From: Candidatus Limnocylindrales bacterium
GTDB taxonomy: Bacteria; Chloroflexota; Limnocylindria; Limnocylindrales; CSP1-4
Assembly (NCBI GenBank): GCA_046595595.1
Contig: JBKJOK010000194.1
Location: forward strand, 1-45,403
Direction of reading: 5' to 3'
DNA length: 45,403 bases
A program made the position numbers and the translations under genes. The first letter of the stretch is position 1. The number at the start of each line of letters is the position of its first letter. A model generated the notes under the pieces. That model saw only the letters and a program-made list of their open reading frames with translations, did no database searches and was not told where the DNA came from. Shown one piece after another: positions 3,158 to 34,381 of the stretch.

Positions 3158-3176
3158 CGGCTGATCGTTCTCCCTC

Positions 3177-15262: not shown

Positions 15263-16501
15263 TCAGCCCGCGAGGACGATCGGATCGCGCGGGAAGAGCG
15301 TCAGGCGCTCGACCCGGCCGGCATCGGCATCGAGCAGGACGAGATCCTCGATCCGGACCCCGGTCTCGCCTTCGAGATAGATCCCGGGCTCGACCGAGAA
15401 CACCGTCGGCGTCGGCAGGGACACATCGAGCGCCGCGGACGAGAGGGACGGCAGCTCGTGCGTCGCGAGGCCGATCCCGTGGCCGAGGCCATGCCCATAC
15501 GCCGGCCACCGCCCATCGTCGCTGATCAGACGCCTGGCAACCCCGTCCAGGTGCCGGCCGGACGGCAGGGCCAGCTCACCCTCGACCCTCGCCTCGATCT
15601 CGGCGATCACGGCCGCCTGGGCCCGAGCGACCGTCTCGTACACGCCGAGGTCCCGCTCACTCGGCCGGCCCACGAACAGGGTCCGGGTCATGTCGCTCCG
15701 GTAGCCACCGACCTGGGCGCCGAAGTCGAACAGAACCACTTCGCCAGCGCGAACTGCAGCCGACGACGGCGCGCCATGCGGCAATGCGGCATTCGGGCCG
15801 ACGAGGCACGTCGCCTCGAAGGCGACCGCCTCGGCTCCGCCGGTCCGCATCAGCCACTCGAGCCGGAGGGCCAGATCGTGCTCGGTCGCGCCCGGGACGA
15901 TCTCCGGCAGGAGGGCCGCCAGCGCGCGGTCGGCGACCGCGCAGGCCGCCGCGACCCGCTCCAACTCGGCCGGGTCCTTCGTGGCCCGGTCCGCCTCGAG
16001 CCAGCCCTCGATCGGGACCAGCTCGACGTCCGGCGCCGCCGCCTCGAGCCGGCGCCAGACGGCGTACGGCAGGAGCGCCGCCTCGATCCCGACCCGGCGC
16101 GCGCCGACCGACGCGACCAGCGCCGCCCAGTCCTTGGCCAGGTCCCGTGGCCCGTCCACGATCCGAACGTCCGGCGCCTCGCGCTTCGCCTGGATCACGT
16201 ACCGCGAGTCCGCGAGGAGGACCACCTCCGAGGCGGAGACGAGGAAGTGGCCGGACGTGCCGGCGACCTTCTCCTCGCCCTCGCCGAGGGTGAACCCGGT
16301 CAGGTAGCGCATGTGCTCGCGGCGGAGCCCGACGTACGCGTCGATCCCGGCCGACGCGAACCGTGCCCGGAGGCGGGCGAGCCGGGCGGACCGGGCCGCG
16401 GCATCGGCGTCGAGCCAGCGAGAGTGGTCCGCCGCGGTCGGCGGTCCGGCGAAGTCCGCCGGGTGGGGCAGGCCGGCGCGCGAGCCCGGCGCTGCGGTCA
16501 C
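15263..16501 (-). CDS. Xaa-Pro aminopeptidase/dipeptidase (peptidase M24B)
   Basis: ORF 15263..17086 trimmed to GTG 16501, which overlaps the mltG stop (GTGA). Creatinase-like N-domain. VLFDFGAQVGGYRSDMTRT, GHGLGHGIGLATHE and FSVEPGIY are M24 metal ligand motifs. The position upstream of efp is conserved. Confidence 0.88.
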   Translation of the reverse strand: MTAAPGSRAGLPHPADFAGPPTAADHSRWLDADAAARSARLARLRARFASAGIDAYVGLRREHMRYLTGFTLGEGEEKVAGTSGHFLVSASEVVLLADSRYVIQAKREAPDVRIVDGPRDLAKDWAALVASVGARRVGIEAALLPYAVWRRLEAAAPDVELVPIEGWLEADRATKDPAELERVAAACAVADRALAALLPEIVPGATEHDLALRLEWLMRTGGAEAVAFEATCLVGPNAALPHGAPSSAAVRAGEVVLFDFGAQVGGYRSDMTRTLFVGRPSERDLGVYETVARAQAAVIAEIEARVEGELALPSGRHLDGVARRLISDDGRWPAYGHGLGHGIGLATHELPSLSSAALDVSLPTPTVFSVEPGIYLEGETGVRIEDLVLLDADAGRVERLTLFPRDPIVLAG

Positions 16502-17901
16502 GGCTTGCCGTACTTCGCGATGTTCGCCTGGTGCTCCTTGGCGGTCTTCGCGTAGACCGTCTCGCCGGAGCCGTCCGCCTTGGCCAGGAAGTAGAGGTAC
16601 TTGTCGGTGATGTCGGGGTTCAACGCAGCATCGATCGACTTGAGCGTCGGCGTGCAGATCGGGCCCGGGGTCAGGCCCTGGCTGAGATACGTGTTGTAGC
16701 CCGCAAGCTCGGCCGGAAGCTCGGCGGGAAGCTGCTCCTTGAGCGTGGTCCAGAATGTGTAGCCGACCCACTCGGCGACGTCGATCTTCGCGAGCTGGAG
16801 CGTGTCGTTGATCCAGAAGATCGTCGGGTCCGAGCCGAGGTGGAGGTTCCCGAACAGCTTTGGGTTCAGCCGATTCTGGAAGACGCCGGCGATCAGCGGC
16901 CGGTCCACGTCGAGGACCGCCTCGCGCTCGACGAGCGAGGCCAGGGTCAGAACCTCGTAGAAGTCCAGCCCGCGCTCGGCCGGAACGTCGAGTCGCTCGC
17001 CGATCGCGGCCTTGAACCCGTCGAGCATGTCGCGGACGAGCTCCTCGGCGGTCGTGTCGGGCAGGACGCGGTATGTCGCCGGCCACAGGAACCCTTCCAG
17101 TGAGGCGCCCTCGGGCAGGACGTCGCGGATCGTCGGGTAGTCGGCAAGCAGCGCCGCGGTCGGGTGCCGGGCCAGCTCGTAGAAGTCCGCGGCGTCCAAG
17201 GCGAGCTCGCTGATGGTTTCGAGCTTGGCCGTGATCTGTTCGAGGCGCAGTCCGGTCCGCAGGGCAATCTCGACGAATTGGATCTGCTCCGGGTTGAGCA
17301 GCGCCTCGACGATCTGGTCGGGCGTCATCGACTTGCGCAGGATGAAGGAGCCCGAGGCGAGCTGCTTGGTCAGGTCCTTCTCGGTGGCGATGAACACGAA
17401 CGCCCGGCCGTCGAGCAGGAAGCCCTTCTCCTCGAGCCGGGTCGCGATCGTCCGGGCACTCTCGCCGTCGTTGACGACGAATCCGACCTGAGTCGCATCG
17501 TCCGACGCCGGCTTGGTCAAGCGTTCGCCGATGTCCTCCTTGACGAGGTCGGCCACGAACGGCATGTCGAGGGCCGCCGGGTTGTCCGAGGCCCAGCCGA
17601 CGATGGCGTCGCGGACCAGCGGCCGGAGGGCCGTGACGAGCACGGTCACGACGATCCCGCCAAGCACGAGGGCGAACAGGAGGAACTTGATGAACCCGGG
17701 GATCCCCCGGCGACGGTCGTTGTTCCAGCCGTTGCCCCCGCCGTTGTAGCCCCCTCCGTTGGAGCCTCCGCCGCTGCCTCCACGGCCGCGCCCCGACGAC
17801 TCGACCGCGTATTCCGGCTGCCAGGCGTCATCGTAGGTGCCGGGTTCCGCCGGCCGCGCCTGGTTGCGGTCGCGGGCGCGGCCGCCGGAGCGGATCGTCA
17901 T
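16498..17901 (-). CDS. mltG: Endolytic murein transglycosylase MltG (YceG-like), with a Gly/Asn-rich N-terminus and a TM anchor
   Basis: 467 aa with TM helix FIKFLLFALVLGGIVVTVLV. LEGFLWPATYRV, LTLASLVEREA and GYNTYLSQGLTPGPICTPTLKSIDAALNP are YceG motifs. ATG overlaps the ruvX stop (ATGA). Confidence 0.9.
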   Translation of the reverse strand: MTIRSGGRARDRNQARPAEPGTYDDAWQPEYAVESSGRGRGGSGGGSNGGGYNGGGNGWNNDRRRGIPGFIKFLLFALVLGGIVVTVLVTALRPLVRDAIVGWASDNPAALDMPFVADLVKEDIGERLTKPASDDATQVGFVVNDGESARTIATRLEEKGFLLDGRAFVFIATEKDLTKQLASGSFILRKSMTPDQIVEALLNPEQIQFVEIALRTGLRLEQITAKLETISELALDAADFYELARHPTAALLADYPTIRDVLPEGASLEGFLWPATYRVLPDTTAEELVRDMLDGFKAAIGERLDVPAERGLDFYEVLTLASLVEREAVLDVDRPLIAGVFQNRLNPKLFGNLHLGSDPTIFWINDTLQLAKIDVAEWVGYTFWTTLKEQLPAELPAELAGYNTYLSQGLTPGPICTPTLKSIDAALNPDITDKYLYFLAKADGSGETVYAKTAKEHQANIAKYGKP

Positions 17902-18374
17902 CGAGAGGCCTCCGTGTCTGGAGTCGGGGCGGCTGCCCGGGCGTCGAGCTCGTCCTGGAGGATGATGGCCGCCGCCTCACGATCGACGCGGGCGCGGTAC
18001 GCATCGCGCTGGGTCCGGCTCGGCGGTCCCCCCGAGCGTCCGCGCTTCATCGGACCGAGGCGCTGCTCGGCGAGATGGCTGCTGAGTCGCTCGTCACGAT
18101 AGCCGAGGGCGGCCGACAGGTGCGGCCGGACGGCGTCGACCCAGGCGCGGGTGATCGCCGCCTGGCCGCCCTCGCCGCCCGACACGTCGAGCGGCAGCCC
18201 GATGACGATCTCGGTCGCTCCCTGCTCGATGGCCAGGCGCTCGACGGCCACGGCGTCGGCCTCGATCGTGGCGGCGCGGCGGAGCGTCGTCAGGGGCATC
18301 GCGATCCCGGCGCTGTCGGCGACGGCCACGCCGATCCGGCGCTCCCCAAGGTCCAGACCGAGGATCCGGGTCAC
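17898..18374 (-). CDS. ruvX: Putative pre-16S rRNA nuclease / Holliday junction resolvase-like YqgF (RuvX)
   Basis: Only the last 158 codons of ORF 17898..19781 are used. VTRILGLDLGERRIGVAVAD and EIVIGLPLDVSGGEGGQA are RuvX motifs. GTG 18374 overlaps the stop of the upstream 663-aa gene (GTGA). Confidence 0.88.
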   Translation of the reverse strand: MTRILGLDLGERRIGVAVADSAGIAMPLTTLRRAATIEADAVAVERLAIEQGATEIVIGLPLDVSGGEGGQAAITRAWVDAVRPHLSAALGYRDERLSSHLAEQRLGPMKRGRSGGPPSRTQRDAYRARVDREAAAIILQDELDARAAAPTPDTEASR

Positions 18375-20362
18375 GGGGCGGCGGAGGCGGGGCGCGGCGA
18401 GGGGGCGGCGCTGGACCCGGACGGGCCACGCGTAGCGGACGGGCGAGCGGCGCCGCCGGACGAGGACGGCGACGCGGCGCCTGCGGCCGGGCCGTCCACG
18501 ATCGTGATCTCGAGGCGCGAATCCATCGTGGGGACGGTCGTGACCCAGTCGGGCCAGAGGGTGACGACCGCCTCGCCGTACAGGGCGAGGGCCGCCCGGG
18601 CGTCGGCGGCGGTCCGGCCCTTGATGAGGTCGCGGAGCGGCGCCGGGTCCACGATCGCGACCCCGATCGCGCGGGCCGTCGCCTCGAACGTCACCTGGCC
18701 GTCCTCGCCGACGCTTCCCGCGCCCACGACGATGTCCATCGATCCATCGACGAGCCGCTGGTCGGCGGCGACCGCCTCGCCGAGCCGCGCCTCCGCGATC
18801 GACTGGACGGGGCTCGGATCCACCGCGATGACGGTCCCGGTCGCGGTCACCCGGACGTCGAATGTCTCGATCGCCTGCCCGACGAGCGACTGCGGATTGC
18901 CATCGACCACGATCTCCCCGAGCTCCCTGGTCTGCGGGAAGAGGGTCGTGTCCTCGGGAGCGCCGGCCCCGGCCGCGATCGCGGCGTCGAAGGCGCTTTC
19001 GACATCGGCCCGGACGGCGGCGACGGCCTGGTCGACCTCGGCCTTGGTCACCTCCGGCGTCACCGTCCGCGAGCCGCCGGCGGTCGGGTCCGGGTTGTTG
19101 ACCTTCAGGAACTCCGGGTTCTCGCCCTGCGGGACCGACCGGATCGAGTTGGCGGGGACGTTGCCCGCCGTCCCGGCCTTGACGGCCTGGATCTCGACCG
19201 ATCGCGACGACGGCTCGATCCGACCGGGCGGGAAGATGAGCGTGGCCCGGGGCAGGATGACCGTGGCGACCGTCCGGAACCGGACCCCTCCCTCGGTCGA
19301 CACCTCGCTGCCCGAAACGACCGTGTTCTGGGCCGTCGGGTCGTAGTTCTGGAACGTCACCGAACCTTTCGCCGGCGACAGTTCGACGTTCGTTCCGGTC
19401 GTGTCGAATGTCTGGGCCGCCTCGACCGGGACCTCGAGGCGGATCGCCGGCACCACGCCGTTCGCGACGTCGACCGTCGTCGCTTCGGGGTCTGCGGCCA
19501 CGGAGATCGGGATCGGGCCGATCGGCTCCCGCCGCGGGGTGAGACGGATCGAGGCCGACGGCAGGAAGAGGTAGGCGCCGACCGCGACCACGATCGCGGC
19601 CAGGCCGAACAGGCCGATCGCGGCCAGGATCGGCGCCCGGGCGCGACCGCCGAGGAGCGGCGTCAACCCGGCCGCGCCGGCAGCCTCGCGATCGCCTTCG
19701 TCGTCGTCGATCTGGAGATCGTCGCCGCTCGAGCGCCCCGCGACCGGCCGGGTCGACGACGCGGTCGGGGCCGGCTGCCACGCTGCCCCGGGGGCCGGCG
19801 AAGTTGCGCCCACGCTCGCGGCCGCCGTCCCGGTCGCGATCGCGGTCGCCTCATCGGGATCGGGCGGCGGGCGCTTCGGACGCTGGGACTTACGCGGAGA
19901 CGCGGGCGTCAGAACAGGCTCGACCGTCCGGTCCGGGGGCGCGACAACCGTCTCGCTGGCCGCGAGCGTACTCGCAGCGAGCGCCGCCGTCGCCGCTGCC
20001 CGGGCCGCGGCGTCGCCCGGGGCCGCCGAGCCGGTCTCGCCCGCATCGCCGGTGCGCGTGCCCGTCCCGGACGCTGGCTTGCTGAGCGACGACTCGTACT
20101 CCCCCACCGAGCCGAAGACGGGCAGTCCCGCCGACGCCGCCAACGACCGCGAGCCGGCGTCGCCGGACACGATCGAGAGGCGCTTGTTGCTGACGAGGGC
20201 CTCGCGTGAGAGGAGCCGGAAGTTCATCCGCGAGGTGGCGATCCGCGAGCCGTACGGCACGACCACGGCGACCTTCGTGCCCGCGGCCGACCGGATGCGC
20301 GACGCCGCCGAGGTGATCTCGTCGTCGACGTCGAGATAGACGATGCCTTCAGCCATGCCCAC
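18371..20362 (-). CDS. Uncharacterised 663-aa bitopic membrane protein: cytoplasmic head, low-complexity linker, one TM helix, beta-rich ectodomain
   Basis: N-terminal IVYLDVDDEITSAASRIRSAAGTKVAVVVPYGSRI. Ala/Pro/Thr linker. TM helix APILAAIGLFGLAAIVVAVGAYLFL (about 19562-19636). The ectodomain contains GSVTFQNYDPTAQNTVVSGSEVSTEGGVRFRT and VEIQAVKAGTAGNVPANSI, which remind me of baseplate-J/gp47-like annotations (unverified). The first codon is GTG, with an ATG two codons later. Confidence 0.8.
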   Translation of the reverse strand: MGMAEGIVYLDVDDEITSAASRIRSAAGTKVAVVVPYGSRIATSRMNFRLLSREALVSNKRLSIVSGDAGSRSLAASAGLPVFGSVGEYESSLSKPASGTGTRTGDAGETGSAAPGDAAARAAATAALAASTLAASETVVAPPDRTVEPVLTPASPRKSQRPKRPPPDPDEATAIATGTAAASVGATSPAPGAAWQPAPTASSTRPVAGRSSGDDLQIDDDEGDREAAGAAGLTPLLGGRARAPILAAIGLFGLAAIVVAVGAYLFLPSASIRLTPRREPIGPIPISVAADPEATTVDVANGVVPAIRLEVPVEAAQTFDTTGTNVELSPAKGSVTFQNYDPTAQNTVVSGSEVSTEGGVRFRTVATVILPRATLIFPPGRIEPSSRSVEIQAVKAGTAGNVPANSIRSVPQGENPEFLKVNNPDPTAGGSRTVTPEVTKAEVDQAVAAVRADVESAFDAAIAAGAGAPEDTTLFPQTRELGEIVVDGNPQSLVGQAIETFDVRVTATGTVIAVDPSPVQSIAEARLGEAVAADQRLVDGSMDIVVGAGSVGEDGQVTFEATARAIGVAIVDPAPLRDLIKGRTAADARAALALYGEAVVTLWPDWVTTVPTMDSRLEITIVDGPAAGAASPSSSGGAARPSATRGPSGSSAAPSPRPASAAP

Positions 20363-20381
20363 GAAGCCTAGCGCGCAAGGG

Positions 20382-21644
20382 CTAGACCTTCATCGCGCGG
20401 AGGACCCGGCGCAGCGCGGCGTCGAGGGGATCCTCGGTCGTCTGGAGCTCGATCGCCTGGTAGGCCAGGCCGAGCGGGGTCACGTCCTGCTGGTCGACGA
20501 GGAGATCGGTGGCGTCGGTGATCGTCTCCACGATGGACGGGCCCATGACGACGACCTCGGGCGGCCGGGCGAACGAGAGCTTGCTCCAGAACCGCTCGGA
20601 GCGGAGCGCCGCCTCGATCTCGGGCAGGCGCGAGCCGCCGCCGCACAGGTAGATCCGGCCGGGCAGCAGGTCGCCGCCGCCGAGCTCCTCCATCACGAGC
20701 TCGACCCCGGCCGCCCAGACCTCGACGTCCTCGCCGACGATCGTTGCGATCTCGGCGCTCCGGTCCACCGCCAGGCCGCGGGCGTAATCGACCTTGGCCG
20801 CCTCGGCCCGTGGGAACGGCAGGTCGAGCCGATCGGCGATGCTCTTCGTGAACGCCCGGCCGCCGAGGGCGAACATCCGGGTGCCCTCGATCCCGCCCTG
20901 CCGGACGAGGGCGATGTCGGTCGTGCCGCCGCCGACGTCGACGAACAGGGCACCGGACTGGCGGATCTGTTCGGAACCGAGAACGCGGGCCACGGCATAC
21001 GGCTCGGCGACGATCTCGAGGAGCTCGAGGTCAAGCTGCGAGGCCACCGTCTGGAGCGCCCCGAGGTGGACGAGCGGGGCGAACGCGTTGAAGATCCCGA
21101 TCTTCACGTGGCGACCCTGGAACCCGACCGGGTTCGTGAGCGCATAGCCGTCGATCGACGCGCCGACGATCGCGGCGTGGACGAGCCGGACGTCGACGTT
21201 CGGCAGGCCGGTCTCCCAGGTGATCGAGCGCTCCGCCTCGCGAAGGGCCTCGCGCTGGACGCTGTCGATCAGCTTCTGGAGCTCGGCCTCGGTGATCGGG
21301 ACGTCGGGCTTCTTGCGCTCCTGGCTGCTGTGGGTCGTGAAGCCCTTGACGAGCTCGCCGGCGATCCCGATCACGACCTGGCTCGGCCGGAAGCCAGCCA
21401 TCTCCTCGGCCTCCTGGAGGGCGACCGAGCAGTTGTCGACGACGGCTGCGATGTCGGCGACCGTGCCCGACGACATGTGGCTCAGACCCTGCCGCTTGCG
21501 GCCGACCCCGCGGACCGTGCCGTGCCCGTCGTCGCCGATCTCGAAGACGAGGGCCTTCGCGAATTCGGTCCCGATGTCGAGGGCGGTGCAGGCGGCCAGC
21601 GACTCGCCGTCGTCGCGCTGCCAGAGCCGGCGCAGGAAGGCCAC
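20382..21644 (-). CDS. FtsA-like actin-fold (ASKHA) ATPase
   Basis: 420 aa, GTG start. ALDIGTEFAKALVF (phosphate-1), ALFVDVGGGTTDIALV (phosphate-2) and IYLCGGGSRLPEI (adenosine). Middle region resembles FtsA (LVHAAIVGASIDGYALTNPVGFQGRHVKI). C-terminal amphipathic LDAALRRVLRAMKV. Confidence 0.85.
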   Translation of the reverse strand: MAFLRRLWQRDDGESLAACTALDIGTEFAKALVFEIGDDGHGTVRGVGRKRQGLSHMSSGTVADIAAVVDNCSVALQEAEEMAGFRPSQVVIGIAGELVKGFTTHSSQERKKPDVPITEAELQKLIDSVQREALREAERSITWETGLPNVDVRLVHAAIVGASIDGYALTNPVGFQGRHVKIGIFNAFAPLVHLGALQTVASQLDLELLEIVAEPYAVARVLGSEQIRQSGALFVDVGGGTTDIALVRQGGIEGTRMFALGGRAFTKSIADRLDLPFPRAEAAKVDYARGLAVDRSAEIATIVGEDVEVWAAGVELVMEELGGGDLLPGRIYLCGGGSRLPEIEAALRSERFWSKLSFARPPEVVVMGPSIVETITDATDLLVDQQDVTPLGLAYQAIELQTTEDPLDAALRRVLRAMKV

Positions 21645-21720: not shown

Positions 21721-24504
21721 TCACGCGGGCTTCGCGGCGTCGAGCCGGGAGCGGATCGCGTCGGCGACGGCCGTCAGCGCCGCTGGCAGCCCGTCGCGCT
21801 TCGTGCCCTTGCCCTGGGCCATCTCGGGCCGGCCTCCGCCACGACCTTCGATCGCGGGCGCGGCCTGGCGCACGAGGTCGCCGGCTGCGATCCCGAGGGC
21901 GACGAGATCGTCGCTGACGGTGACGAACAGCTGGGGCTCGTCGGCGTCGAGGGCGAGGGCGATCACGCCAGAGCCGAAGATCCCGCGGAGGTCCTTCGAG
22001 GCGCCCTTCAGCGTGTCGATCGACTCGTAGGGCCCGGCGAACGCGACGAGCTTCACGCCCGGCGCGATCTCCTCCGCCCGGGCCGCGAGATCGGCCGACG
22101 TCGGCAGCCCGCCGCCGGTCCCGGCTGCGGCCGCGGCCTTGAGCCGCCGCTTCGTCTCGCGCAGCTCGTCCTGGAGAGCCGCGATCCGATCGGCCACGAC
22201 CTCGACGGTCTGTGCGCCGGCGGCTGCGGCCGCGGCCGCGAGCGCGTCCGTGCGCGTCCGGAGGTGCGCATCCGCGCCCGCGCCGGTGAGGGCCTCGATC
22301 CGGCGCATGCCGGATCCGATCGACCGCTCGGCGGTGATCACGAAGCTGCCGATCTGGCCCGACGCCCGGCAGTGCGTCCCGCCGCACAGCTCGTGGCTGA
22401 AGCCCTCGACCCGGACCGTCCTGACCGTCTCGCCGTACTTCTCGTCGAAGAACGCGTCGGCGCCGGCGGCGATCGCCTCCGGCATCGTCATGAACGCCGG
22501 TATGACAGTTCGATCGTCACGGATCACGGCCCGGACCTGGTCCTCGATCGCCCGGGTCTCCTCGGGCGTGAGCGGCCGGTCGAACGGGAAGTCGAAGCGG
22601 AGGTAGTCGGGTGTCACGAGGGAGCCTGCCTGGCGAGCGGCCTCGCCGACGACGTTGCGCAGGGCACGGTGGAGGAGGTGGGTCCCGGTGTGGTTGCGCA
22701 TCGTATGGGCACGCCGCTCGGGATCGACGACCGCGTCCACGGTCTCACCGACCCGGAGCCGGCCGTGGAGCGTGCCGCGCTGGACGATCAGCCCGCCGAC
22801 CGGGCGCTGGGTGTCCTCGACGCTGAAGAGGGACGAGCCGCCGCCGGCCTCGCGCAGCTCGCCGCGGTCGCCGACCTGTCCGCCGCCCTCGGCGTAGAAC
22901 GGGCTGGCGTCGAGGACGATCTCGGCGGCGCCCTGACCGGTCAGCTCGTCGAACTCCATCCCGTCCCGGACGATCGCGACGATCGACGCCGGGGCCGAGG
23001 TCGTGTCGTAGCCCAGGAAGCGGGTATCGCCGCGGCGGGCCTGGATCGCCTGGTACAGAGTGGTGAACTCGGCGTGCTTCGCGAGCTCGGCCTTCTTGCC
23101 CGAGCGACTCCGCTCGCGCTGCTCGGCGAGGGCGGCGTCGAATCCTGCCCGGTCCACCCCGACGCCGGACTCGGCCGCCAGCTCGATCGTCAGGTCGATC
23201 GGGAAGCCGAACGTGTCGTGGAGCCGGAACGCGAGATCGCCCGGAACCTCGGCTGCACCGGCCGGGAGATCCTCCGGCCGTCGCCCGACGACGCGCTCGA
23301 CGCCCGGGGCAAGGCCGGTCAGGGCCGCCTCGAGCTGGGACGTGCCGGCATCGAGCGTTCGGGCGAACTGGGCCTCCTCGCGCTCGATCGCGGCGAGGAT
23401 CGCCTCCGTCCGGTCGATCAGGTACGGGTAGGCCTCGCTCATGATCTCGATCACCACGGTCCCGAGCTCGCCCATGAACGGCTCGCGCCGGCCGACGAGC
23501 CGGCCGTGGCGAACGGCCCGGCGCATGATCCGGCGGAGGACGTAGCCGCGGCCCTCATTGCCCGGCAGGACGCCGTCGGCGATCAGGAACACGACGGCCC
23601 GGGCGTGATCGGCGATGACCTGGTAGCTGAACCGCTCGGCCTCGAAGGCGGCCGGATCGTGGCCCATCAGCGCCCGCATCCGGTCGTGGATCGGGACGAA
23701 CAGGTCGGTGTCGAAGTTGCTCGGGACCTGCTGGAGCACGCTCGCCAGCCGCTCCAGGCCCAGACCGGTGTCGACGCTCGTGAACGGCAGCGGGACCCGG
23801 CCCGACGGGCGCTGGTCGAACTCCATGAAGACGAGGTTCCAGAGCTCGAGCCAGCGCGGGCAGCTCTCCGAGTGGTCGGGGATGCATTCCGGGCCCTCGG
23901 ACAGATGAGCGCCGCGATCGAAGTGGATCTCGCTGCACGGGCCGCACGGTCCGCTGTCGGCCATCCGCCAGAAGTTGCTGTCATCACCACTGTCGACGTC
24001 ACCCCAGACGGCCATCCGCTCGGGTGGCAGGCCGATCTCGTCGCGCCACACCTGGCGGGCGACCTCGTCGTCCTTGTACGTCGTCGCCGCCAAACGCTCG
24101 GGCGGGATGCCCATGTCCTTTGTCAGGAAGTCCCAGGCGTAGTGGATCGCGTCGCGCTTGAAGTAGTCGCCAAAGCTCCAGTTGCCGAGCATCTCGAAGA
24201 AGGTGTGGTGGCGGGTCGTCCGGCCGACCTCCTCGAAGTCGTTGTGCTTGCCGGCGACCCGCAGGACGCGCTGGTAGTCGACCGCTCGGTTGTAGCTCCG
24301 GGTCTCCGAGCCGGTCAGGACCTCCTTGAACTGGACCATGCCCGAGTTCGTGAACAGGAGGGTCGCGTCGCCGGCCGGGACGAGGCTGGCGCTGGGCACG
24401 GCGGTGTGGCCGCGCTCCGCGAAGAACTCGACGAAGCGGCGGCGGATCTCGGCGGCGGGCAGGGACTTGATCCGCGGATCGTGCTCGGTGACGGGGGGCG
24501 ACAC
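21721..24504 (-). CDS. alaS: Alanine--tRNA ligase
   Basis: 927 aa, GTG start. IRRRFVEFFAERGHTAVPSASLVP, FTNSGMVQFK and GDYFK (class II core). HTGTHLLHRALR with ELCGGTHC (editing domain). C-terminal DHHA1-like region. Confidence 0.97.
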   Translation of the reverse strand: MSPPVTEHDPRIKSLPAAEIRRRFVEFFAERGHTAVPSASLVPAGDATLLFTNSGMVQFKEVLTGSETRSYNRAVDYQRVLRVAGKHNDFEEVGRTTRHHTFFEMLGNWSFGDYFKRDAIHYAWDFLTKDMGIPPERLAATTYKDDEVARQVWRDEIGLPPERMAVWGDVDSGDDSNFWRMADSGPCGPCSEIHFDRGAHLSEGPECIPDHSESCPRWLELWNLVFMEFDQRPSGRVPLPFTSVDTGLGLERLASVLQQVPSNFDTDLFVPIHDRMRALMGHDPAAFEAERFSYQVIADHARAVVFLIADGVLPGNEGRGYVLRRIMRRAVRHGRLVGRREPFMGELGTVVIEIMSEAYPYLIDRTEAILAAIEREEAQFARTLDAGTSQLEAALTGLAPGVERVVGRRPEDLPAGAAEVPGDLAFRLHDTFGFPIDLTIELAAESGVGVDRAGFDAALAEQRERSRSGKKAELAKHAEFTTLYQAIQARRGDTRFLGYDTTSAPASIVAIVRDGMEFDELTGQGAAEIVLDASPFYAEGGGQVGDRGELREAGGGSSLFSVEDTQRPVGGLIVQRGTLHGRLRVGETVDAVVDPERRAHTMRNHTGTHLLHRALRNVVGEAARQAGSLVTPDYLRFDFPFDRPLTPEETRAIEDQVRAVIRDDRTVIPAFMTMPEAIAAGADAFFDEKYGETVRTVRVEGFSHELCGGTHCRASGQIGSFVITAERSIGSGMRRIEALTGAGADAHLRTRTDALAAAAAAAGAQTVEVVADRIAALQDELRETKRRLKAAAAAGTGGGLPTSADLAARAEEIAPGVKLVAFAGPYESIDTLKGASKDLRGIFGSGVIALALDADEPQLFVTVSDDLVALGIAAGDLVRQAAPAIEGRGGGRPEMAQGKGTKRDGLPAALTAVADAIRSRLDAAKPA

Positions 24505-25584: not shown

Positions 25585-27714
25585 TCAGATGAAGATCTCG
25601 ACGACGTTCGTTTGCCTGTCGAGGGCCGCCTCGAACGCCCCGCGCGCGACGAGGAACCCTCCGCGTCGATACGGATTGTCGGTGGTCCGCCCGTCGACCA
25701 GCGGGCGGCCGTTGACGCGGACCTCGTGCGGGCCGTACCCGTCGCCGGCCACGTGGTAGAGGTAGCGGACTGCCCGGCCGTCGCGCGTGATGTCGAAGGT
25801 GAGGCCGTCGGCGTCGCGCGGAAGGACAGGGTCGATCACGACGTCGTCGAACCACGTCCGCAGACCGAGCACGTTCGAGATGAGCTGGTTGACATAGATG
25901 CCCGGCCCGCTCGAGTAGACCCGCCAGCCGCCCTTGGCCCCGACGCGACCCGACCGCAACCGGCCGAACCGGCGGCGTGCTTCGTAGCGGTCGCGGAACG
26001 CGGCGTCGGAGCTGCTGAAGAACGCATTGCTCTGGCGCGGGAGGGCCGATGGCACGTCCCGTTCGAGCCCGATCGGGCAGATCGCCAGCAGCCCTCGAAA
26101 TGCGTCCGCGGGCCGTCCCATCCGGGCCATCGCCTCGATGTAGCGGATATGGGCGTGGACATACTGGAGCCCGACCTCGCGGCCGAAGTTCGCCGCCGAC
26201 TCCGCCCGCTTGAAGATCCGCGACGGGCCTCCTCGATACTCCATTGGCCTGTCCATCAACCGCACGCCATCGGGGAACCGGAGGTGGCGCTCGATCAGGG
26301 CGGCATGGCGCCGCGCCTGCTCGACGGTGAACATCCCGCTGATCATGCCGCGCGTCATGGGCAGCAGCCGGTAATCGACGCCTGTCTGGCGATCGCGCGG
26401 GTGGAGGTAGTAGGCGACGCCGTCGGAGTTGAATTCGGCCAGTCCTGCAACCACCCCATCCGGAACGAGGTGACGTTGGAAGTCGGCGCGCATCCGATCG
26501 CACAGGTCCGTCAGGCGGGCCGCCAGTGCCGTCCGCCCGGCCCGCTCGCACACCGTCGCGTAGCGGCCGAGCGTCTGGTAGGCGAGCTCGACGGTCCACG
26601 AGCTCACCAGACGGCGGGCCATCGACGGGTCGACCGGCTGGAGGGTGTCCTCCCAGTCACCGCCGCCGAAGACGACGAGCGCCGTGCCCGGAATGCAGTC
26701 CCGTTCGATCGTGGCGATCTGGCGCTCGGTGTGGGCGAGGATCGTGTCCGTGCCGGCGCTCACGGCGCCGGTCCGGCTGTCGGTCCAGGCGACTTCCTCG
26801 TCGAGGACGGAGAGATCGTTCGTCGCCTCGATGTAGTCGCACAGCGCCTTGATCGGCCAGTGGATGATGTCGCCGTGGCTGTCGGGCGCCCGGATCTCGC
26901 GATGGCGATCGACCATGAACCATTGCGGCCAGTCGCCAGAGTCCCGGTCCTGGTTGGCGTAGACGATCCGGAGGACCTCGCGCAGGGCTCCCGTCTGGCC
27001 CGTGGCGACGAACAGCTCCGTCGGGCCCTGGCACACGTCGCGGAGCCCCCACGCCGCACCACCGGACTGCTCCAGACCGTGCGGCGTCGTCGCGTGGATC
27101 AGCGCGTCGTGGAGATACCAGCGCAGGACGTCATCGAGGCGGGTCAGGTCGTCGACCACCCGGCCCGTGCCGCCACCGAGCCGTGCGTGACGCCCGAGTC
27201 CGGACCAGAACGCGCTCGACCCACTCCCCTCGCCCTCTCGGTCGTCGGGTTTGTCGCCGGCGCCCGCGTGCCGAGCCGCCCGGCTCGCCGCCGCGCCGGC
27301 GTCCAGCAGGTCGCCGCTGTACGTGACGGCGAAGTGCTCGAGCGGCTTCGTCCGGATCACGACATACGGCCCGCCGCGCTCGACGCCGTCGGCATGGAGC
27401 AGGCCGTCGCCACCGATCGCGGCGATCCGACTCGGATCGGACGTGATGGCGAAACTCGCCTCCGGGTAGCGCCGGCCCAGGAGGCTCGTCCCGTCCGGGC
27501 GAAGCTCGATCCTGCCGTCCGCCTCGTGGATCACGATCGGACCGACCGGGTCGAACTCATGCTCGCCGAGCACGATGCTGTGGCAGACGACCAGCTCGAT
27601 CGGCCCTCCCTTCTCGACATCGATGGTCAGCCGGCAGACGGGCTCCTCGATCGACACAGCCAGCCGGATCGTCAATGCGCAGTCGGCGGTCCCGATACAG
27701 CCAGGCCGCACCAC
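25585..27714 (-). CDS. GH94-type (glycosyltransferase-36 / cellobiose-phosphorylase-like) phosphorylase, C-terminal two thirds (frame B of a frameshifted gene)
   Basis: ALVVFGGGDWEDTL is like the GH94 catalytic DW.D segment. HGLEQSGGAAWGLRDVCQG, RVYSSGPGIYVNQLI and a C-terminal beta-sandwich. The first ~7 codons of the tracked ORF overlap the end of the meaningful part of frame A. Confidence 0.75.
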   Translation of the reverse strand: MVRPGCIGTADCALTIRLAVSIEEPVCRLTIDVEKGGPIELVVCHSIVLGEHEFDPVGPIVIHEADGRIELRPDGTSLLGRRYPEASFAITSDPSRIAAIGGDGLLHADGVERGGPYVVIRTKPLEHFAVTYSGDLLDAGAAASRAARHAGAGDKPDDREGEGSGSSAFWSGLGRHARLGGGTGRVVDDLTRLDDVLRWYLHDALIHATTPHGLEQSGGAAWGLRDVCQGPTELFVATGQTGALREVLRIVYANQDRDSGDWPQWFMVDRHREIRAPDSHGDIIHWPIKALCDYIEATNDLSVLDEEVAWTDSRTGAVSAGTDTILAHTERQIATIERDCIPGTALVVFGGGDWEDTLQPVDPSMARRLVSSWTVELAYQTLGRYATVCERAGRTALAARLTDLCDRMRADFQRHLVPDGVVAGLAEFNSDGVAYYLHPRDRQTGVDYRLLPMTRGMISGMFTVEQARRHAALIERHLRFPDGVRLMDRPMEYRGGPSRIFKRAESAANFGREVGLQYVHAHIRYIEAMARMGRPADAFRGLLAICPIGLERDVPSALPRQSNAFFSSSDAAFRDRYEARRRFGRLRSGRVGAKGGWRVYSSGPGIYVNQLISNVLGLRTWFDDVVIDPVLPRDADGLTFDITRDGRAVRYLYHVAGDGYGPHEVRVNGRPLVDGRTTDNPYRRGGFLVARGAFEAALDRQTNVVEIFI

Positions 27715-29041
27715 TCGGACCCATCTCGAACGCCGACGGCACGCCGAGCAGCTCGTCGCCGCGATCGGTCCTGATGAAGATCCGGAGGCCGCTCGACTTG
27801 AGCACGTTGAGCGGGCTGCGACACACGCTGAGGAGCTTGTGGAACGACGTGTTGCCGATCGTCAGCTGCGACGCGAAGACGCCGAACATCCAGGCCGTGA
27901 CCGACAGCGTGGCGTCGCTCGGGAGCAGCTCGCGGCCTGAGCGCAGGAGGTGACCCGTCGGGCGCTCCTGGACGAGCTCCTTGGCCTTGAGCACGACGTG
28001 TTGCTGGTCGCCGTGGATGAAGGAATAGAGGGTCCCGTTGCCACGCTCGACGTGGCGCCAGTCGGAGCCGAACGCCGTTTCGAGCTCGGCGGTCGCGAGG
28101 TCCTCGCTCTGGAACAGGGCCGGTCGGTCGAACAGGCTGCTCGAGCGCGGCTCCGGCGGCGGCTCGATCGCCCATCTCGACAGGCCACGGAACGCGCTGC
28201 CGGCGGCACGCGCATGACCCAGATCCGGGCCGCCCGAGGCGGCCGGATGATCGGCCTCGAAGGCTCCGAAGAACGTGATCTCTGCCGACGCCCCGGCTGC
28301 CATGGAGACGGCCCTGGACTGGAGAGTCGGCAGGGCCAGCTCGTACTGGTAGGTCCGGTTCGGCAGCGTCCGGCGGGTGAGCGCCGACGGCGTGCCGGAC
28401 GCCTTGGACGCCAGGCCGTGGAACTGGAACCCGTCGGTCAGGTAGCCGACGGAGCCCGCGAGGCAGCCGTGCATGACCCACGGAAACGCGCCGCCCTGTG
28501 GCAGACCCTGCCGGGAGCACAGCAGCAGGCCGAGCGCGGCGCCATCGACGACCGTGTGATCGATGTACTGGCTCGTGTACAGCTCGCTCGTGCGGACGGC
28601 CGCCTCCTGGGCGATCCCGAGGTCCTGGGCGAGCACCACGTCGATGCTCACCCGACGGGCAGTTGTGTTGGCCACCGCCACGGTCCAGAACCAGGTCGCG
28701 TCCGTCTCGGCCAGGCGCAGCGTGCAGACATAGTCGAGTCCGTCGAAGGACCCCTCCCAGGTCGCTCCCTCGGCGGAGGCCCGGAACCGACCGGCGGCGG
28801 CCGGCCCGAGCAACGGCAGGCTCTCGATGCCGGCTCGCCTGCGACGTCGGAGGAACAGGTTGCCCAGGCCGCCTTCCAACGGGCTGCCGAGGACCTGGTT
28901 CACGAGGATGTCGACGTGGCGGATCGCGAAGATCGAGCCATTCTCCAGCACGTCGATCGCGAGGCCGCTCGCGTTGCGGAGCTGGGCCACGATCGGTGGC
29001 GGCGCCTGGACGAGCGTCGAGCTCGCGCGGGTCGAGCTCAA
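27557..29041 (-). CDS. N-terminal part (frame A) of the same GH94-type phosphorylase; the meaningful sequence ends near 27695
   Basis: TTG 29041 overlaps the GH39 stop (TTGA); GTG near 28990 is an alternative start. Beta-sandwich-like repeats (LRNASGLAIDVLENGSIFAIRH, WFWTVAVANTTARRVSIDVVLAQDLGI, LRIFIRTDRGDELLGVPSAFEMGPSGAAWLY). After WLY the frame gives 45 Arg-rich nonsense codons. Confidence 0.7.
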   Translation of the reverse strand: MSSTRASSTLVQAPPPIVAQLRNASGLAIDVLENGSIFAIRHVDILVNQVLGSPLEGGLGNLFLRRRRRAGIESLPLLGPAAAGRFRASAEGATWEGSFDGLDYVCTLRLAETDATWFWTVAVANTTARRVSIDVVLAQDLGIAQEAAVRTSELYTSQYIDHTVVDGAALGLLLCSRQGLPQGGAFPWVMHGCLAGSVGYLTDGFQFHGLASKASGTPSALTRRTLPNRTYQYELALPTLQSRAVSMAAGASAEITFFGAFEADHPAASGGPDLGHARAAGSAFRGLSRWAIEPPPEPRSSSLFDRPALFQSEDLATAELETAFGSDWRHVERGNGTLYSFIHGDQQHVVLKAKELVQERPTGHLLRSGRELLPSDATLSVTAWMFGVFASQLTIGNTSFHKLLSVCRSPLNVLKSSGLRIFIRTDRGDELLGVPSAFEMGPSGAAWLYRDRRLRIDDPAGCVDRGARLPADHRCREGRADRAGRLPQHRARRA

Positions 29042-32393: not shown

Positions 32394-32477
32394 GGCGTTG
32401 ACCTCCGGTTTGTTCAGCGGACGTGCTGGCCGCCGTGTTCGGCTGGATCGATGTCGGGCGCGCGAGGAGCGGGCGGG

Positions 32478-32516
32478 AGCGAAGACAGCGGGCGCGAGCG
32501 AAGACAGCGGGGCGCA
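32478..32516. repeat. Tandem 19/20-bp direct repeat (GAGCGAAGACAGCGGGCGC, then GAGCGAAGACAGCGGGGCGC) in the permease-glucanase spacer
   Basis: Read directly. The two units are adjacent and differ by one extra G. Confidence 0.85.
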
Positions 32517-32543
32517 AGCGGGTTTGACCGTGGTCGGGTGGCG

Positions 32544-33422
32544 TCAGCCCTTCAGGCCGGTCGTGGCGATCCCCTCCGTGATCCAGCGCTGGAAGAGGAT
32601 GAAGATGATCAGGACGGGCAGGACGAGAACGACCGACCCGGCCATCAGCATTCCGTGATCGGCCTGGTACTGGCCGGTCGCGAAGGTGGCGAGGGCCACG
32701 GGCAGCGTGTACATCTCGGGCTCCTGGGCCATGACCAGCGGGTACAGGAAGCTGTTCCAGCTGCCGAGGAACGTCAGGATCCCGAGGGTCGCGAGGACCG
32801 GGGCGGTGATCGGCAGAACGATCCCCCAGAAGATTCGCCACTCGTTTGCGCCGTCGATCCGGGCGGCCTCGAGAAGCTCGTCGGGGATGCCGTACATGAA
32901 CTGGCGGGTGAGGAAGACCCCGAACGGACCCACGAGGAACGGCAGGATCAGGCCCGGGTACGTGTTGACGAGCCCGAGGTTCGCCATCAGGACGAAGTTC
33001 GGGATCAGGGTGATCCCGGCCGGGACCATCAGGGTCGCGAGGACGAGACCCATGACCAGCCCCTTGCCGCGCCACTTGAGCTTGGCCAGAGCGTAGCCCA
33101 GCATCGGGCAGAACAGGACGTTGCCGAGCGTGACGGCGACCGCCACGAGCGACGAGTTGAAGAAGAACCGCGGGAAGTCGAGCTGGTCGAACAGGCGCGT
33201 GAAGTTGTCGGTGGTCGGGTTCTTCGGGAGGAACGTCGGTGGGCTGACGAGGAACTCGGCCTGGGGCTTGAACGCACCGAGAAGCATCCACAGGAACGGA
33301 CCGACCATCAGCAGGATGCCGAAGGTCAGCCCTGCGTAGATCCAGATGCGGCTCGAGCCGCCCTTGGCGGGGACGTCATCGAGCGCTGGGCGCCCGGCGG
33401 ACGGAGCCTGGATGGCGGTCAT
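32544..33422 (-). CDS. Carbohydrate ABC transporter permease (MalG/CUT1 type)
   Basis: 292 aa, about 6 TM. EAA-loop-like DELLEAARIDGANEWRIFWGIVLP. Confidence 0.9.
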   Translation of the reverse strand: MTAIQAPSAGRPALDDVPAKGGSSRIWIYAGLTFGILLMVGPFLWMLLGAFKPQAEFLVSPPTFLPKNPTTDNFTRLFDQLDFPRFFFNSSLVAVAVTLGNVLFCPMLGYALAKLKWRGKGLVMGLVLATLMVPAGITLIPNFVLMANLGLVNTYPGLILPFLVGPFGVFLTRQFMYGIPDELLEAARIDGANEWRIFWGIVLPITAPVLATLGILTFLGSWNSFLYPLVMAQEPEMYTLPVALATFATGQYQADHGMLMAGSVVLVLPVLIIFILFQRWITEGIATTGLKG

Positions 33423-33435
33423 CGGCGGGCCTCCA

Positions 33436-34380: not shown

Positions 34381-34381
34381 G

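Follow-up and report, generated by a model that had tools for sequence, protein, structure and literature searches.

The locus

The two genes considered here lie on the minus strand of a 45,403-nt stretch (the window) from a Candidatus Limnocylindrales bacterium, at the coordinates given for them beforehand (20382-21644 and 18371-20362), and encode an FtsA-like actin-fold ATPase and a bitopic membrane protein, its partner. Both open reading frames carry the motifs quoted in an initial annotation of this DNA, and the translations agree. Their GC3 values (0.95 and 0.92, respectively, in a window of 72% GC) mark them as real coding frames, and relatives of the feature occur in more than 488 species-level genomes; this is no chance pair of open reading frames. 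The genes concerned, all on the minus strand, are:

21721..24504, minus strand: alaS, upstream neighbour (tRNA-synt_2c, tRNA_SAD and DHHA1 domains)
20382..21644, minus strand: FtsA-like actin-fold ATPase gene, 420 aa, GTG start, TAG stop (open reading frame, translation, profile scores)
18371..20362, minus strand: bitopic membrane partner gene, 663 aa from GTG, likelier 661 aa from the ATG at 20356 (open reading frame, AlphaFold2)
17898..18374, minus strand: ruvX (Pfam RuvX), its start overlapping the partner stop (GTGA)
16498..17901, minus strand: mltG/yceG (Pfam YceG, 217 bits), ATGA overlap with ruvX, N-terminal TM segment
15263..16501, minus strand: M24 Xaa-Pro peptidase gene (Creatinase_N and Peptidase_M24), GTGA overlap with mltG

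Domain matches agree with the neighbour identities proposed initially (AlaS, RuvX, YceG/MltG and Creatinase_N plus Peptidase_M24), which are followed by genes for a glyoxalase, EF-P, XseA and XseB. The 19 nt between the FtsA-like stop and the partner GTG at 20362, as well as the three overlaps described for partner/ruvX, ruvX/mltG and mltG/M24, can be read directly in the sequence. The length of 663 aa put forward for the partner holds for the frame from GTG, but in the database gene call, as in all homologues, the protein begins at the ATG two codons downstream (MAEGIV...), which makes 661 aa the likelier length; the numbering below follows this shorter form.

The FtsA-like ATPase

The first gene product is matched by Pfam FtsA (PF14450) with 56.2 bits (GA 31.8) and reaches 103.3 bits against the FtsA equivalog model TIGR01174, below the cutoff of 175.85, with 36 bits against TIGR01175 (pilM; cutoff 133) and 28-30 bits against MreB models (cutoffs 293-366). 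Of the Pfam families that the initial annotation had named, FtsA and (for the partner, see below) Baseplate_J are matched, whereas SHS2_FtsA gives no match in the ATPase at E<=1. Among PDB sequences, Vibrio/E. coli FtsA matches best (E 4e-15), and FtsA and PilM lead the Foldseek ranking, obtained with a low-confidence query model (pLDDT 49); the same poor model means that a 1C subdomain is predicted solely from alignment to FtsA. Judged by its sequence scores, the ATPase is an actin-fold protein of the FtsA/PilM class, FtsA-like yet not a canonical FtsA, much as first supposed. Its features are:

21564..21578, minus strand: phosphate-1 motif DIGTE (aa 23-27), invariant in alignments A3 and A4
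20916..20939, minus strand: phosphate-2 motif DVGGGTTD (aa 236-243), with DxGGGTTD kept in every homologue aligned
20631..20645, minus strand: adenosine-binding motif CGGGS (aa 334-338), likewise without variation
20385..20432, minus strand: C-terminal amphipathic helix DPLDAALRRVLRAMKV (aa 405-420), presumed membrane-targeting sequence (hydrophobic moment), nearly invariant across species

The ATP motifs are intact in the window ATPase and conserved across all aligned homologues; the second position of the phosphate-2 motif is V or I (alignment A3), and the FtsA counterpart in the alignment is DIGAGTMD. The C-terminal helix, described initially as amphipathic, is strongly so, with a hydrophobic moment of 0.65-0.68 compared to 0.57 for the membrane-targeting helix of E. 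coli FtsA.

The membrane partner

The layout first read from the sequence (head, linker, TM helix, beta-rich ectodomain and tail) is borne out by the AlphaFold2 model, which has a head at 1-92, disorder at 94-240, a TM helix at 241-264, a beta-rich ectodomain at 268-620 (pLDDT 85-97) and a disordered tail:

20081..20356, minus strand: cytoplasmic alpha/beta head (aa 1-92), pLDDT >90, motifs YLDVDDEIT and GSRxATSR(I/M)NFRLL
19637..20080, minus strand: disordered Ala/Pro/Thr linker (aa 93-240), pLDDT <50, with two short conserved motifs
19946-19966, minus strand: linker motif LAASETV, kept in the close subclade only
19868-19894, minus strand: linker motif RKSQRPKRP, kept in the close subclade only
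19565..19636, minus strand: single transmembrane helix (aa 241-264), a helix in the AlphaFold2 model, preceded by an Arg-rich stretch
18497..19564, minus strand: extracytoplasmic ectodomain of Baseplate_J fold (aa 265-620; PF04865, PHROG 6, Foldseek)
19130-19375, minus strand: barrel core of the ectodomain (aa 328-409)
18374..18496, minus strand: disordered Ser/Pro/Ala C-terminal tail (aa 621-661), pLDDT <50

The head, modelled with a beta-alpha-beta-alpha-beta-alpha topology, is the most conserved region of the partner: alignment A1 gives 86% identity for the head and 62% for the ectodomain, alignment A2 55% and 38%. Apart from weak hints of STAS, the head has no relative in Pfam or among PDB sequences. 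The linker motifs LAASETV and RKSQRPKRP are present in 61/286 and 64/286 full-length homologues, respectively, and the tail keeps its composition across homologues, though not its sequence, its final residue almost always being P.

A folded head of this kind bears on the possibility that the two proteins make up a platform like PilM-PilN, serving a pilus, secretion or competence machine. The PilM structures 2ych, 3jc8 and 5eou are among the top fold matches of the ATPase, and PilM follows the same logic by binding the cytoplasmic N-terminus of the bitopic PilN. Still, the pilM model is scored far under its cutoff, the window and loci contain no pilO/P/Q, ATPase, pilin or secretin genes, and the partner begins with a folded domain instead of an INLLP-type peptide, all of which makes this reading very improbable.

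The initial guess that the ectodomain resembles Baseplate_J proved correct for the window partner (PF04865, 24.3 bits against a gathering score of 21.1), and the family is also matched by 15 of 20 diverse homologues (best E 4e-15). PHROG 6, a baseplate wedge subunit, matches aa 329-521 (E 1.9e-9), and phage baseplate J/wedge proteins form the large majority of the top Foldseek matches in PDB and BFVD (probability 1.0); phi812, phiCD508, Mu, A-1(L) and many J-like BFVD proteins are among the matches found by these three approaches. The partner thus stands as a bitopic protein, so far uncharacterised, whose ectodomain is of the Baseplate_J type. The Pfam match spans only profile positions 22-114 of 255, i.e. 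the barrel, and the same stretch has sub-threshold matches to the GlxA beta-barrel domain, so that part of the wedge similarity may reflect a shared barrel.

These matches would also suit a remnant of a prophage, contractile injection system or anti-phage defence with a baseplate gene. In none of the surroundings, though, are sheath, tube, gp25/W, spike or other tail genes found; the ectodomain has no tblastn match in 50,697 phage records, an IMG/VR scan with head-derived patterns confirmed no relative, and the PADLOC defence models gave no match to the partner and one 14-bit match to the ATPase. With, in addition, a host-like GC3, a TM helix and cytoplasmic domain that are absent from virion proteins, and a fixed place inside a housekeeping operon in 160/160 loci, a remnant of this sort is extremely improbable.

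Conservation of the pair

The placement between alaS and ruvX-mltG that had been noted in the window recurs throughout the relatives, in which the pair is strictly co-conserved and adjacent whichever gene is used for the search. The order alaS, FtsA-like gene, partner, ruvX, mltG, M24 gene is kept in 80/80 partner-centred genome loci, the FtsA-like gene lying directly upstream of the partner in every one, and among 80 metagenome loci centred on the FtsA-like gene, those with room have the partner head gene next (72/72), the ectodomain (46/46), RuvX (40/40) and, upstream, AlaS (64/64). The gap between the two genes is mostly <=25 nt, with an overlap in some loci, and all named hosts are Limnocylindria-type Chloroflexota.

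Two genes might of course work independently and have become neighbours merely through capture in the same conserved operon, in which ruvX, mltG and the M24 peptidase gene are indeed united without a known common function. Adjacency in 100% of loci whichever of the two is taken as the starting point, gaps that mostly measure 0-25 nt, the restriction of both genes to one same lineage in everything inspected, and the cytoplasmic head being the most conserved part of the partner make such independence improbable. Rather, the pair may, with about even odds, be a vertically inherited two-gene module fixed in Limnocylindria.

The ATPase is 420 aa long without indels in 41/41 complete cases, and its median identity is 85.3%, compared to 74.3% for AlaS, 67.3% for M24, 54.9% for MltG and 89.7% for EF-P; it exceeds AlaS in 60/60 loci. 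Purifying selection on the ATPase and the partner head is unusually strong. Such a profile would suit a polymer, in which many surfaces are under constraint, and strong conservation of the head is as expected if it contacts an invariant ATPase.

Extreme conservation would likewise suit an essential core protein, and the ATPase could be the sole FtsA of the organism, an orthologue that has moved, been remodelled and would anchor FtsZ at the membrane, with the partner as a lineage-specific divisome protein (FtsN- or FtsQ-like). FtsA is its best family match in sequence and fold, it has an FtsA-type C-terminal amphipathic helix, and loss or replacement of FtsA has precedent in that Actinobacteria and cyanobacteria (other Terrabacteria) are not known to have a canonical FtsA. 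Nevertheless, the equivalog cutoff is not reached and solved FtsAs are matched at E 4e-15 only; the gene adjoins ftsZ or ftsQ in 0/161 loci, ftsZ being found neither in the window nor in the first 81 loci; and evolution this slow in a protein so distant from canonical FtsA suggests a separate family of long standing more than a drifting orthologue. In other Chloroflexota ftsA stays beside ftsZ (PMC10608941), which counts against this possibility as well, and we consider it rather unlikely.

Interpretation

Limnocylindria are an abundant uncultured lineage of soil and freshwater (Ellin6529, proposed 'Eulabeiota'). Hosts of this lineage are monoderm and possess genes for peptidoglycan (bioRxiv 10.1101/2021.08.23.457424). 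The pair, described in no paper found, looks like an undescribed membrane-spanning cytoskeletal module, and the best explanation (with a probability of about 0.5) seems to be a lineage-specific module like FtsA-FtsN, PilM-PilN or MreB-RodZ that serves envelope growth or division; the sole-FtsA reading is a special case thereof, in which the process is fixed as division.

For its mode of action we infer the following. The ATPase, a divergent member of the FtsA/PilM branch, would bind ATP, be fixed to the inner face of the membrane via its C-terminal helix, and polymerise there. The conserved alpha/beta head of the partner would dock on it, as the cytoplasmic ends of FtsN, PilN and RodZ do on FtsA, PilM and MreB, and the basic linker motif may add to this docking in some clades. 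The Baseplate_J wedge fold self-assembles in phages, and the ectodomain could oligomerise into a scaffold within the wall zone of the monoderm cell, with the Ser/Pro tail extending into the wall. The module would thereby connect a filament in the cytoplasm with an extracytoplasmic assembly, and the latter would position or coordinate division or the growth of the envelope. From adjacency, the cooperation with MltG that was proposed initially is conceivable, but since the pair is coupled first to the functionally unrelated ruvX and alaS-ruvX-mltG is itself a housekeeping string, its place there may reflect no more than where it was inserted. Altogether, the observation made in the initial annotation is confirmed and its interpretation partly supported.

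Comparison with known systems

GlxA of Streptomyces lividans (a membrane-anchored copper oxidase; PF21110, PDB 4unm) is, like the partner, an N-terminally anchored extracytoplasmic protein of monoderm Terrabacteria. Its barrel receives sub-threshold matches from 10/20 partner homologues, and GlxA chains take 5 of the top 6 Foldseek PDB ranks for the ectodomain (~140 columns aligned), but every profile match falls short of the gathering score of GlxA and overlaps with the Baseplate_J barrel, and the partner lacks the galactose-oxidase propeller and the copper site. The phage wedge proteins (P2 gpJ, Mu gp47, T4 gp6), of which T6SS TssF is a cellular relative, have the barrel and domain order in common with the ectodomain. 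This likeness is confined to profile and fold, without a tblastn match to any phage; unlike them, the ectodomain is fused to a TM helix and cytoplasmic domain, and its gene is vertically inherited in a housekeeping operon without other baseplate genes.

In PilM-PilN of the type IVa pilus alignment complex (PDB 2ych, 5eou), the ATPase is likewise FtsA-like and binds a bitopic protein, encoded next to it and co-transcribed, at its cytoplasmic N-terminus. The present pair differs in its low PilM model score, the absence of pilO/P/Q and pilin genes, the 92-aa folded head and an unrelated ectodomain.

FtsA-FtsN (Vibrio maritimus FtsA-FtsN(1-29), PDB 7q6i) shares with the pair an actin-fold ATPase with a 1C-type insertion (predicted here by alignment) and a C-terminal amphipathic helix, and FtsN, like the partner, is bitopic, its N-terminal part lying in the cytoplasm and its linker being long and disordered. 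FtsN has a basic cytoplasmic motif, which RKSQRPKRP in the partner linker recalls, as a resemblance only. Unlike FtsA, the ATPase scores below the equivalog cutoff, has no SHS2_FtsA Pfam match, lies outside the dcw cluster and away from ftsZ, and is far more conserved than usual for FtsA; unlike FtsN, the partner begins with a folded alpha/beta head, and its ectodomain is a baseplate wedge where FtsN has a SPOR domain.

With regard to MreB-RodZ of the elongasome, the ATPase belongs to the FtsA/PilM class and not to that of MreB (by the model scores above), and the partner has no XRE-type HTH in its head and an unrelated ectodomain. Nonetheless, in both systems a highly conserved actin homologue that is membrane-bound (presumably so here) goes with a bitopic protein, and RodZ is built like the partner, from a small folded domain in the cytoplasm, a disordered linker, one TM helix and an ectodomain rich in beta structure; RodZ is associated with peptidoglycan elongation, as is MltG.

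Gene pair and genomic neighbourhood

Between alaS and ruvX the window encodes an FtsA-like ATPase of the actin fold and a single-pass membrane protein (the partner, i.e. a head, a linker, a TM helix, an ectodomain and a tail). Both open reading frames hold up as the initial annotation had described them, since their coordinates were confirmed and every motif quoted was found in the translations.

Genes of the pair (window coordinates)
20382-21644, reverse strand, FtsA-like ATPase, 420-aa ORF
18371-20362, reverse strand, partner, 663-aa ORF from the GTG at 20362

The G+C content of the window is 72%, and with a third-position GC of 0.95 (ATPase) and 0.92 (partner) both ORFs can be taken as true frames in this genome. 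They are 19 nt apart, counted to the GTG at 20362, while an ATG two codons later is the start of the partner in the database gene call and in all homologues (MAEGIVYLD..., 661 aa). The translational overlaps reported before are also present in the sequence: the partner stop and ruvX start share GTGA, ruvX and mltG share ATGA, and mltG and the M24 peptidase gene share GTGA. Because promoter and terminator scans gave nothing exceeding the shuffled background, the limits of the operon are defined by these overlaps only.

According to Pfam, the pair is preceded by AlaS and followed by RuvX, YceG/MltG, Creatinase_N plus Peptidase_M24, a glyoxalase, EF-P, XseA and XseB. The other genes of the window (ScpA, a Xer-type recombinase, RecN, NAD kinase, TlyA, Dxs, a glycan-utilisation cluster, MnmA, a cysteine desulfurase and BipA) make its remainder ordinary chromosome, and no ftsZ was found in it.

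Further features of the window
25585-35680, reverse strand, glycan-utilisation cluster upstream of alaS: GH94-like glycoside phosphorylase, GH39 enzyme, glycoamylase/DUF3131 protein, sugar ABC transporter (two permeases and a binding protein)
27672-29432, reverse strand, 586-aa ORF between the phosphorylase and the GH39 gene, no Pfam match
16498-17901, reverse strand, MltG with a ~140-aa N-terminal extension ahead of the YceG domain
2411-3265, reverse strand, bPH_2 (bacterial PH) protein with a C-terminal SHOCT, between an M50-type peptidase and the Xer-type recombinase

Several long ORFs overlap at 27672-29432, which makes the gene call there uncertain. The extension of MltG, the least conserved of the operon's housekeeping genes (median identity 55%), is made up of a cytoplasmic part rich in Gly, Asn and Arg and a single TM helix. 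The spacing from alaS to the FtsA-like gene, 76 nt in the window, is replaced in some relatives by a gap of 0.6-1.4 kb or an extra small gene; examples are the genome loci L001 (8259-8714, a 151-aa ORF without a Pfam match), L012 (3523-4919) and L019 (5139-5735).

Distribution and co-conservation

Relatives were confirmed by a genome scan in at least 488 species-level genomes, the best 80 of which are all Limnocylindria-type MAGs bar three mis-binned contigs. All source-named homologues of both proteins are assigned to Candidatus Limnocylindrales/Limnocylindria, Chloroflexota or CSP1-4, except for one partner homologue labelled Patescibacteria group, which is probably a mis-binned contig. When the most distant member listed served as the seed of a further homologue search, the names obtained were once more confined to Limnocylindria and CSP1-4, and cluster look-ups yielded no additional taxa. 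Among 1.84 billion cluster representatives a profile search found 6,650 clusters at E<=1e-3 (670 at E<=1e-30); the best 150 of the 6,650 were all of the same type, with the head motif in every one that includes the N-terminus. A DNA pattern of the head motif limited to AT-rich codons gave no match in metagenomes. The Limnocylindria-type operon was also seen in MAGs labelled Verrucomicrobiia, Eisenbacteria and Patescibacteria (loci L020, L066 and L077, and P0125), with an FtsA-like gene 72-93% identical to that of the window, and its presence in these assemblies probably reflects binning contamination.

The order alaS, FtsA-like gene, partner, ruvX, mltG, M24 peptidase gene and then efp was kept in 80/80 partner-centred genome loci. 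As these had been chosen through the partner, a reciprocal search was run from the other side, with a divergent FtsA-like protein (74% identical to that of the window) as query against metagenome contigs.

Neighbours of the FtsA-like gene in metagenome loci with room for them
Head-bearing gene directly downstream, 72/72
Wedge ectodomain downstream, 46/46
RuvX downstream, 40/40
AlaS upstream, 64/64

The pair is thus linked in all loci from both search directions, which bears out the adjacency and co-conservation on which the initial annotation had made its reading depend, and in most cases no more than 25 nt separate the two genes. That the ATPase and the partner are functionally independent neighbours is considered unlikely.

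The ATPase

By Pfam the ATPase matches FtsA (PF14450) at 56.2 bits (GA 31.8), with the scores of MreB, Hsp70 and EutA well under this and that of PilM_2 at 20.8 bits against a threshold of 27. The FtsA equivalog TIGR01174 reaches 103.3 bits, aligned over aa 20-290, for a cutoff of 175.85, and PRK09472 reaches 61.8 bits for a cutoff of 409. Models of EutJ, PilM and MreB score far below TIGR01174, and identity with PilM (TIGR01175: 36.1 bits, cutoff 133) or MreB (NCBIfam models: 28-30 bits, cutoffs 293-366) was rejected, the scores being far below the cutoffs. The closest solved relatives by sequence are the FtsA proteins of Vibrio and E. coli (E 4e-15), and the only PGAP label of the homologues is 'cell division FtsA domain-containing protein'. 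The phosphate-1 (DIGTE), phosphate-2 (DVGGGTTD) and adenosine (CGGGS) motifs are kept in all homologues aligned. The ATPase is therefore placed in the FtsA/PilM branch of the actin fold and, judged by these scores, lies outside canonical FtsA.

At the position of the 1C (SHS2) subdomain, which in FtsA replaces actin subdomain 1B, the alignments to TIGR01174 and to FtsA 7q6f span aa 96-178, including NPxGxxG; since SHS2_FtsA has no Pfam match at E<=1, such a subdomain would be divergent here, and the model has a pLDDT <50 in this region. For the 16 C-terminal residues the helical hydrophobic moment is 0.65-0.68, compared to 0.57 for the membrane-targeting helix of E. coli FtsA. The N-terminus (aa 2-10, window 21615-21641, reverse strand) reads AFLRRLWQR, or AFWRRIWQR in most homologues, is likewise strongly amphipathic with a hydrophobic moment of 0.70, and may be a second membrane-binding or self-docking helix beside the C-terminal one. 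The AlphaFold2 model of the ATPase is poor (mean pLDDT 49, from a shallow alignment of 88-93% identity), and the FtsA and PilM structures that rank first in a fold search with it lend weak support to the class.

Unlike canonical ftsA, which is found next to ftsZ/ftsQ at the end of the dcw cluster, the FtsA-like gene has its place between alaS and ruvX, both in the window and in another 160 loci. A tblastn search for ftsZ and canonical ftsA, run over the window and the first 81 loci with FtsZ of E. coli and a fragment of Vibrio FtsA as queries, gave the FtsA-like gene itself as its sole match. It is conceivable, though doubtful, that the ATPase is the sole, relocated FtsA of this organism, working with a lineage-specific divisome partner, which would be a special case of the explanation preferred below; a TIGR01174 score below the cutoff and the alaS-ruvX context speak against a canonical FtsA.

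Median identity to the window protein across genome loci
EF-P, 89.7%
FtsA-like ATPase, 85.3%
AlaS, 74.3%
M24 peptidase, 67.3%
RuvX, 64.2%
MltG, 54.9%
Partner, 43.5%

In 41/41 complete cases the ATPase has exactly 420 aa and no indels, and its identity exceeds that of AlaS in 60/60 loci. Conservation well above that of alanyl-tRNA synthetase places it among the most constrained proteins of this genome region, which points to an essential structural role. Given its slow evolution and its distance from canonical FtsA, an old, separate family seems to explain the ATPase better than a drifting FtsA orthologue does.

The partner

The layout put forward earlier for the partner (cytoplasmic head, linker, one TM helix, beta-rich ectodomain and tail) was matched by an AlphaFold2 model built on a 20-sequence alignment.

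Regions of the partner in the AlphaFold2 model (661-aa numbering)
aa 1-92, alpha/beta head, pLDDT >90
aa 94-240, disordered linker, pLDDT <50
aa 241-264, TM helix, helix in model
aa 268-620, beta-rich multidomain ectodomain, pLDDT 85-97
aa 624-660, Ser/Pro/Ala tail, pLDDT <50

Conservation differs strongly along the chain, with identities in the close/diverse alignment of 86%/55% for the head, 62%/38% for the ectodomain and 26%/15% for the linker. The head is the most conserved region, which fits with it contacting an almost invariant cytoplasmic protein. For the head no significant Pfam match was found (HTH included), and a PDB profile search was empty at E<=10. STAS_2 matched 2/24 heads only, at E 0.004 or weaker, which falls short of a significant profile match to STAS/SpoIIAA.

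Aa 36-49 of the head (window 20210-20251, reverse strand) form a near-invariant GSRxATSR(I/M)NFRLL loop and helix start. STAS/SpoIIAA domains carry a phosphorylatable serine; with the weak STAS_2 matches as backing, the motif corresponds in position to that serine site and may hint at regulation by phosphorylation. The otherwise unconserved linker holds two motifs, LAASETV (window 19946-19966, reverse strand) and RKSQRPKRP (19868-19894, reverse strand), found in 61/286 and 64/286 full-length homologues, i.e. in the close subclade only. The basic RKSQRPKRP loosely resembles the cytoplasmic basic motif of FtsN.

The N-terminus of the partner is, in the model, a folded domain and not an INLLP peptide of the PilN type. 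This predicted difference, the PilM scores far below the cutoff and the lack of pil genes near the pair all argue against a PilM-PilN-like platform, and even with PilM structures near the top of the fold search such a platform is judged very unlikely.

For the ectodomain, the resemblance to baseplate-J proteins that the initial annotation had suggested was substantiated. Baseplate_J (PF04865) scores 24.3 bits for a threshold of 21.1 at aa 330-411 of the 663-aa ORF, a match that covers profile positions about 20-114 of 255 only, and it is found in 15/20 diverse homologues (best E 4e-15). A match to PHROG 6 (baseplate wedge subunit) spans aa 329-521 (E 1.9e-9). Foldseek against the PDB returned baseplate proteins of cyanophage A-1(L), phi812, phiCD508 and Mu with probability 1.0, and against BFVD Baseplate J-like proteins were the large majority of top matches. 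The barrel superposes locally at 2.3-4.6 A over ~110 residues, while differing domain orientations keep the whole-chain TM-scores low. The GlxA beta-barrel domain (PF21110) gave sub-threshold matches in 10/20 homologues at the Baseplate_J barrel (partner aa 328-409, window 19130-19375, reverse strand), and five of the six best Foldseek ranks in the PDB are GlxA chains, which suggests that the two barrels are related; P0250, P0276, P0295 and P0314 are the homologues named alongside the partner for this overlap.

The ectodomain thus has a Baseplate_J domain and a wedge fold, but its genomic context is not that of baseplate genes: next to alaS, ruvX, mltG, the M24 peptidase gene and efp, the locus holds no other baseplate/tail, T6SS or contractile injection genes. 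No match to the ectodomain was found by tblastn in 50,697 phage records, no relative was confirmed in an IMG/VR scan with head-derived patterns, and PADLOC gave no match for the partner and one 14-bit match (E 0.0029) for the ATPase. On these results a phage or defence origin was rejected, a remnant of a phage, contractile injection or defence system being extremely improbable, and the relation of the partner to phages is remote.

Proposed mechanism

FtsN, PilN and RodZ dock with their cytoplasmic ends on FtsA, PilM and MreB, respectively, and wedge proteins oligomerise in phage baseplates. The data establish the genes with their domains, the strictness of their linkage, how strongly selection acts on them and a setting that is chromosomal and not phage-borne. 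The scheme that follows is inferred and is given a probability of about one half. The C-terminal helix would bring the ATPase to the membrane, where it would polymerise, and the head of the partner would dock on it in the manner of FtsN-FtsA, PilN-PilM and RodZ-MreB, with RKSQRPKRP possibly adding to the docking in the close subclade. Outside the membrane the wedge-fold ectodomain would oligomerise as in baseplates, so that the module would join a cytoplasmic filament to an extracytoplasmic scaffold for envelope growth or division. Limnocylindria are described as monoderm, with peptidoglycan genes (bioRxiv 10.1101/2021.08.23.457424). For the partnership with MltG suggested in the initial annotation, adjacency was the sole point in favour; the partner is coupled most directly to ruvX, the function of which is unrelated. 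In Firmicutes and Actinobacteria the alaS-ruvX-mltG string is known without this pair.

A more far-reaching reading, which is tentative and on balance doubtful, is that an independent bacterial cytoskeletal system, so far unrecognised, is a defining trait of this phylum-level uncultured lineage. In it, an ancient, near-invariant FtsA paralogue would polymerise on the membrane and organise, via the head, an extracellular ring or lattice of an exapted baseplate-wedge fold, as a new trans-envelope morphogenetic machine beside a canonical FtsA-FtsZ divisome or in place of part of one.

Significance and comparison with known systems

A literature search found no paper describing the pair, and public annotation stops at the domain names 'FtsA domain-containing' and 'baseplate J/gp47 family', as a result of which the ATPase may be counted in surveys as FtsA and the partner as prophage. 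Limnocylindria (Ellin6529) belong to the most abundant of the uncultured bacteria related to Chloroflexota in soils and lakes, and to our knowledge nothing is known of their cell biology. The hypothesis is open to tests that need no cultivation, such as co-folding, expression in a heterologous host and assays of lipid binding and polymerisation. If true, it would add a fourth pair of an actin homologue and a bitopic adaptor, after FtsA-FtsN, PilM-PilN and MreB-RodZ, and would clearly exemplify the reuse of a phage baseplate fold outside the cell membrane.

With phage Baseplate_J proteins the partner shares domain and fold, whereas the locus context differs. The pair differs from PilM/PilN in scores, neighbours and N-terminal peptide, and from MreB/RodZ in an ATPase below the MreB cutoffs and a head without the RodZ-type HTH. 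Canonical FtsA has the ATP motifs and the C-terminal amphipathic helix in common with the ATPase, but differs in score and gene position. The logic of FtsA-FtsN, PilM-PilN and MreB-RodZ is the same, i.e. that of an actin homologue combined with a bitopic adaptor.
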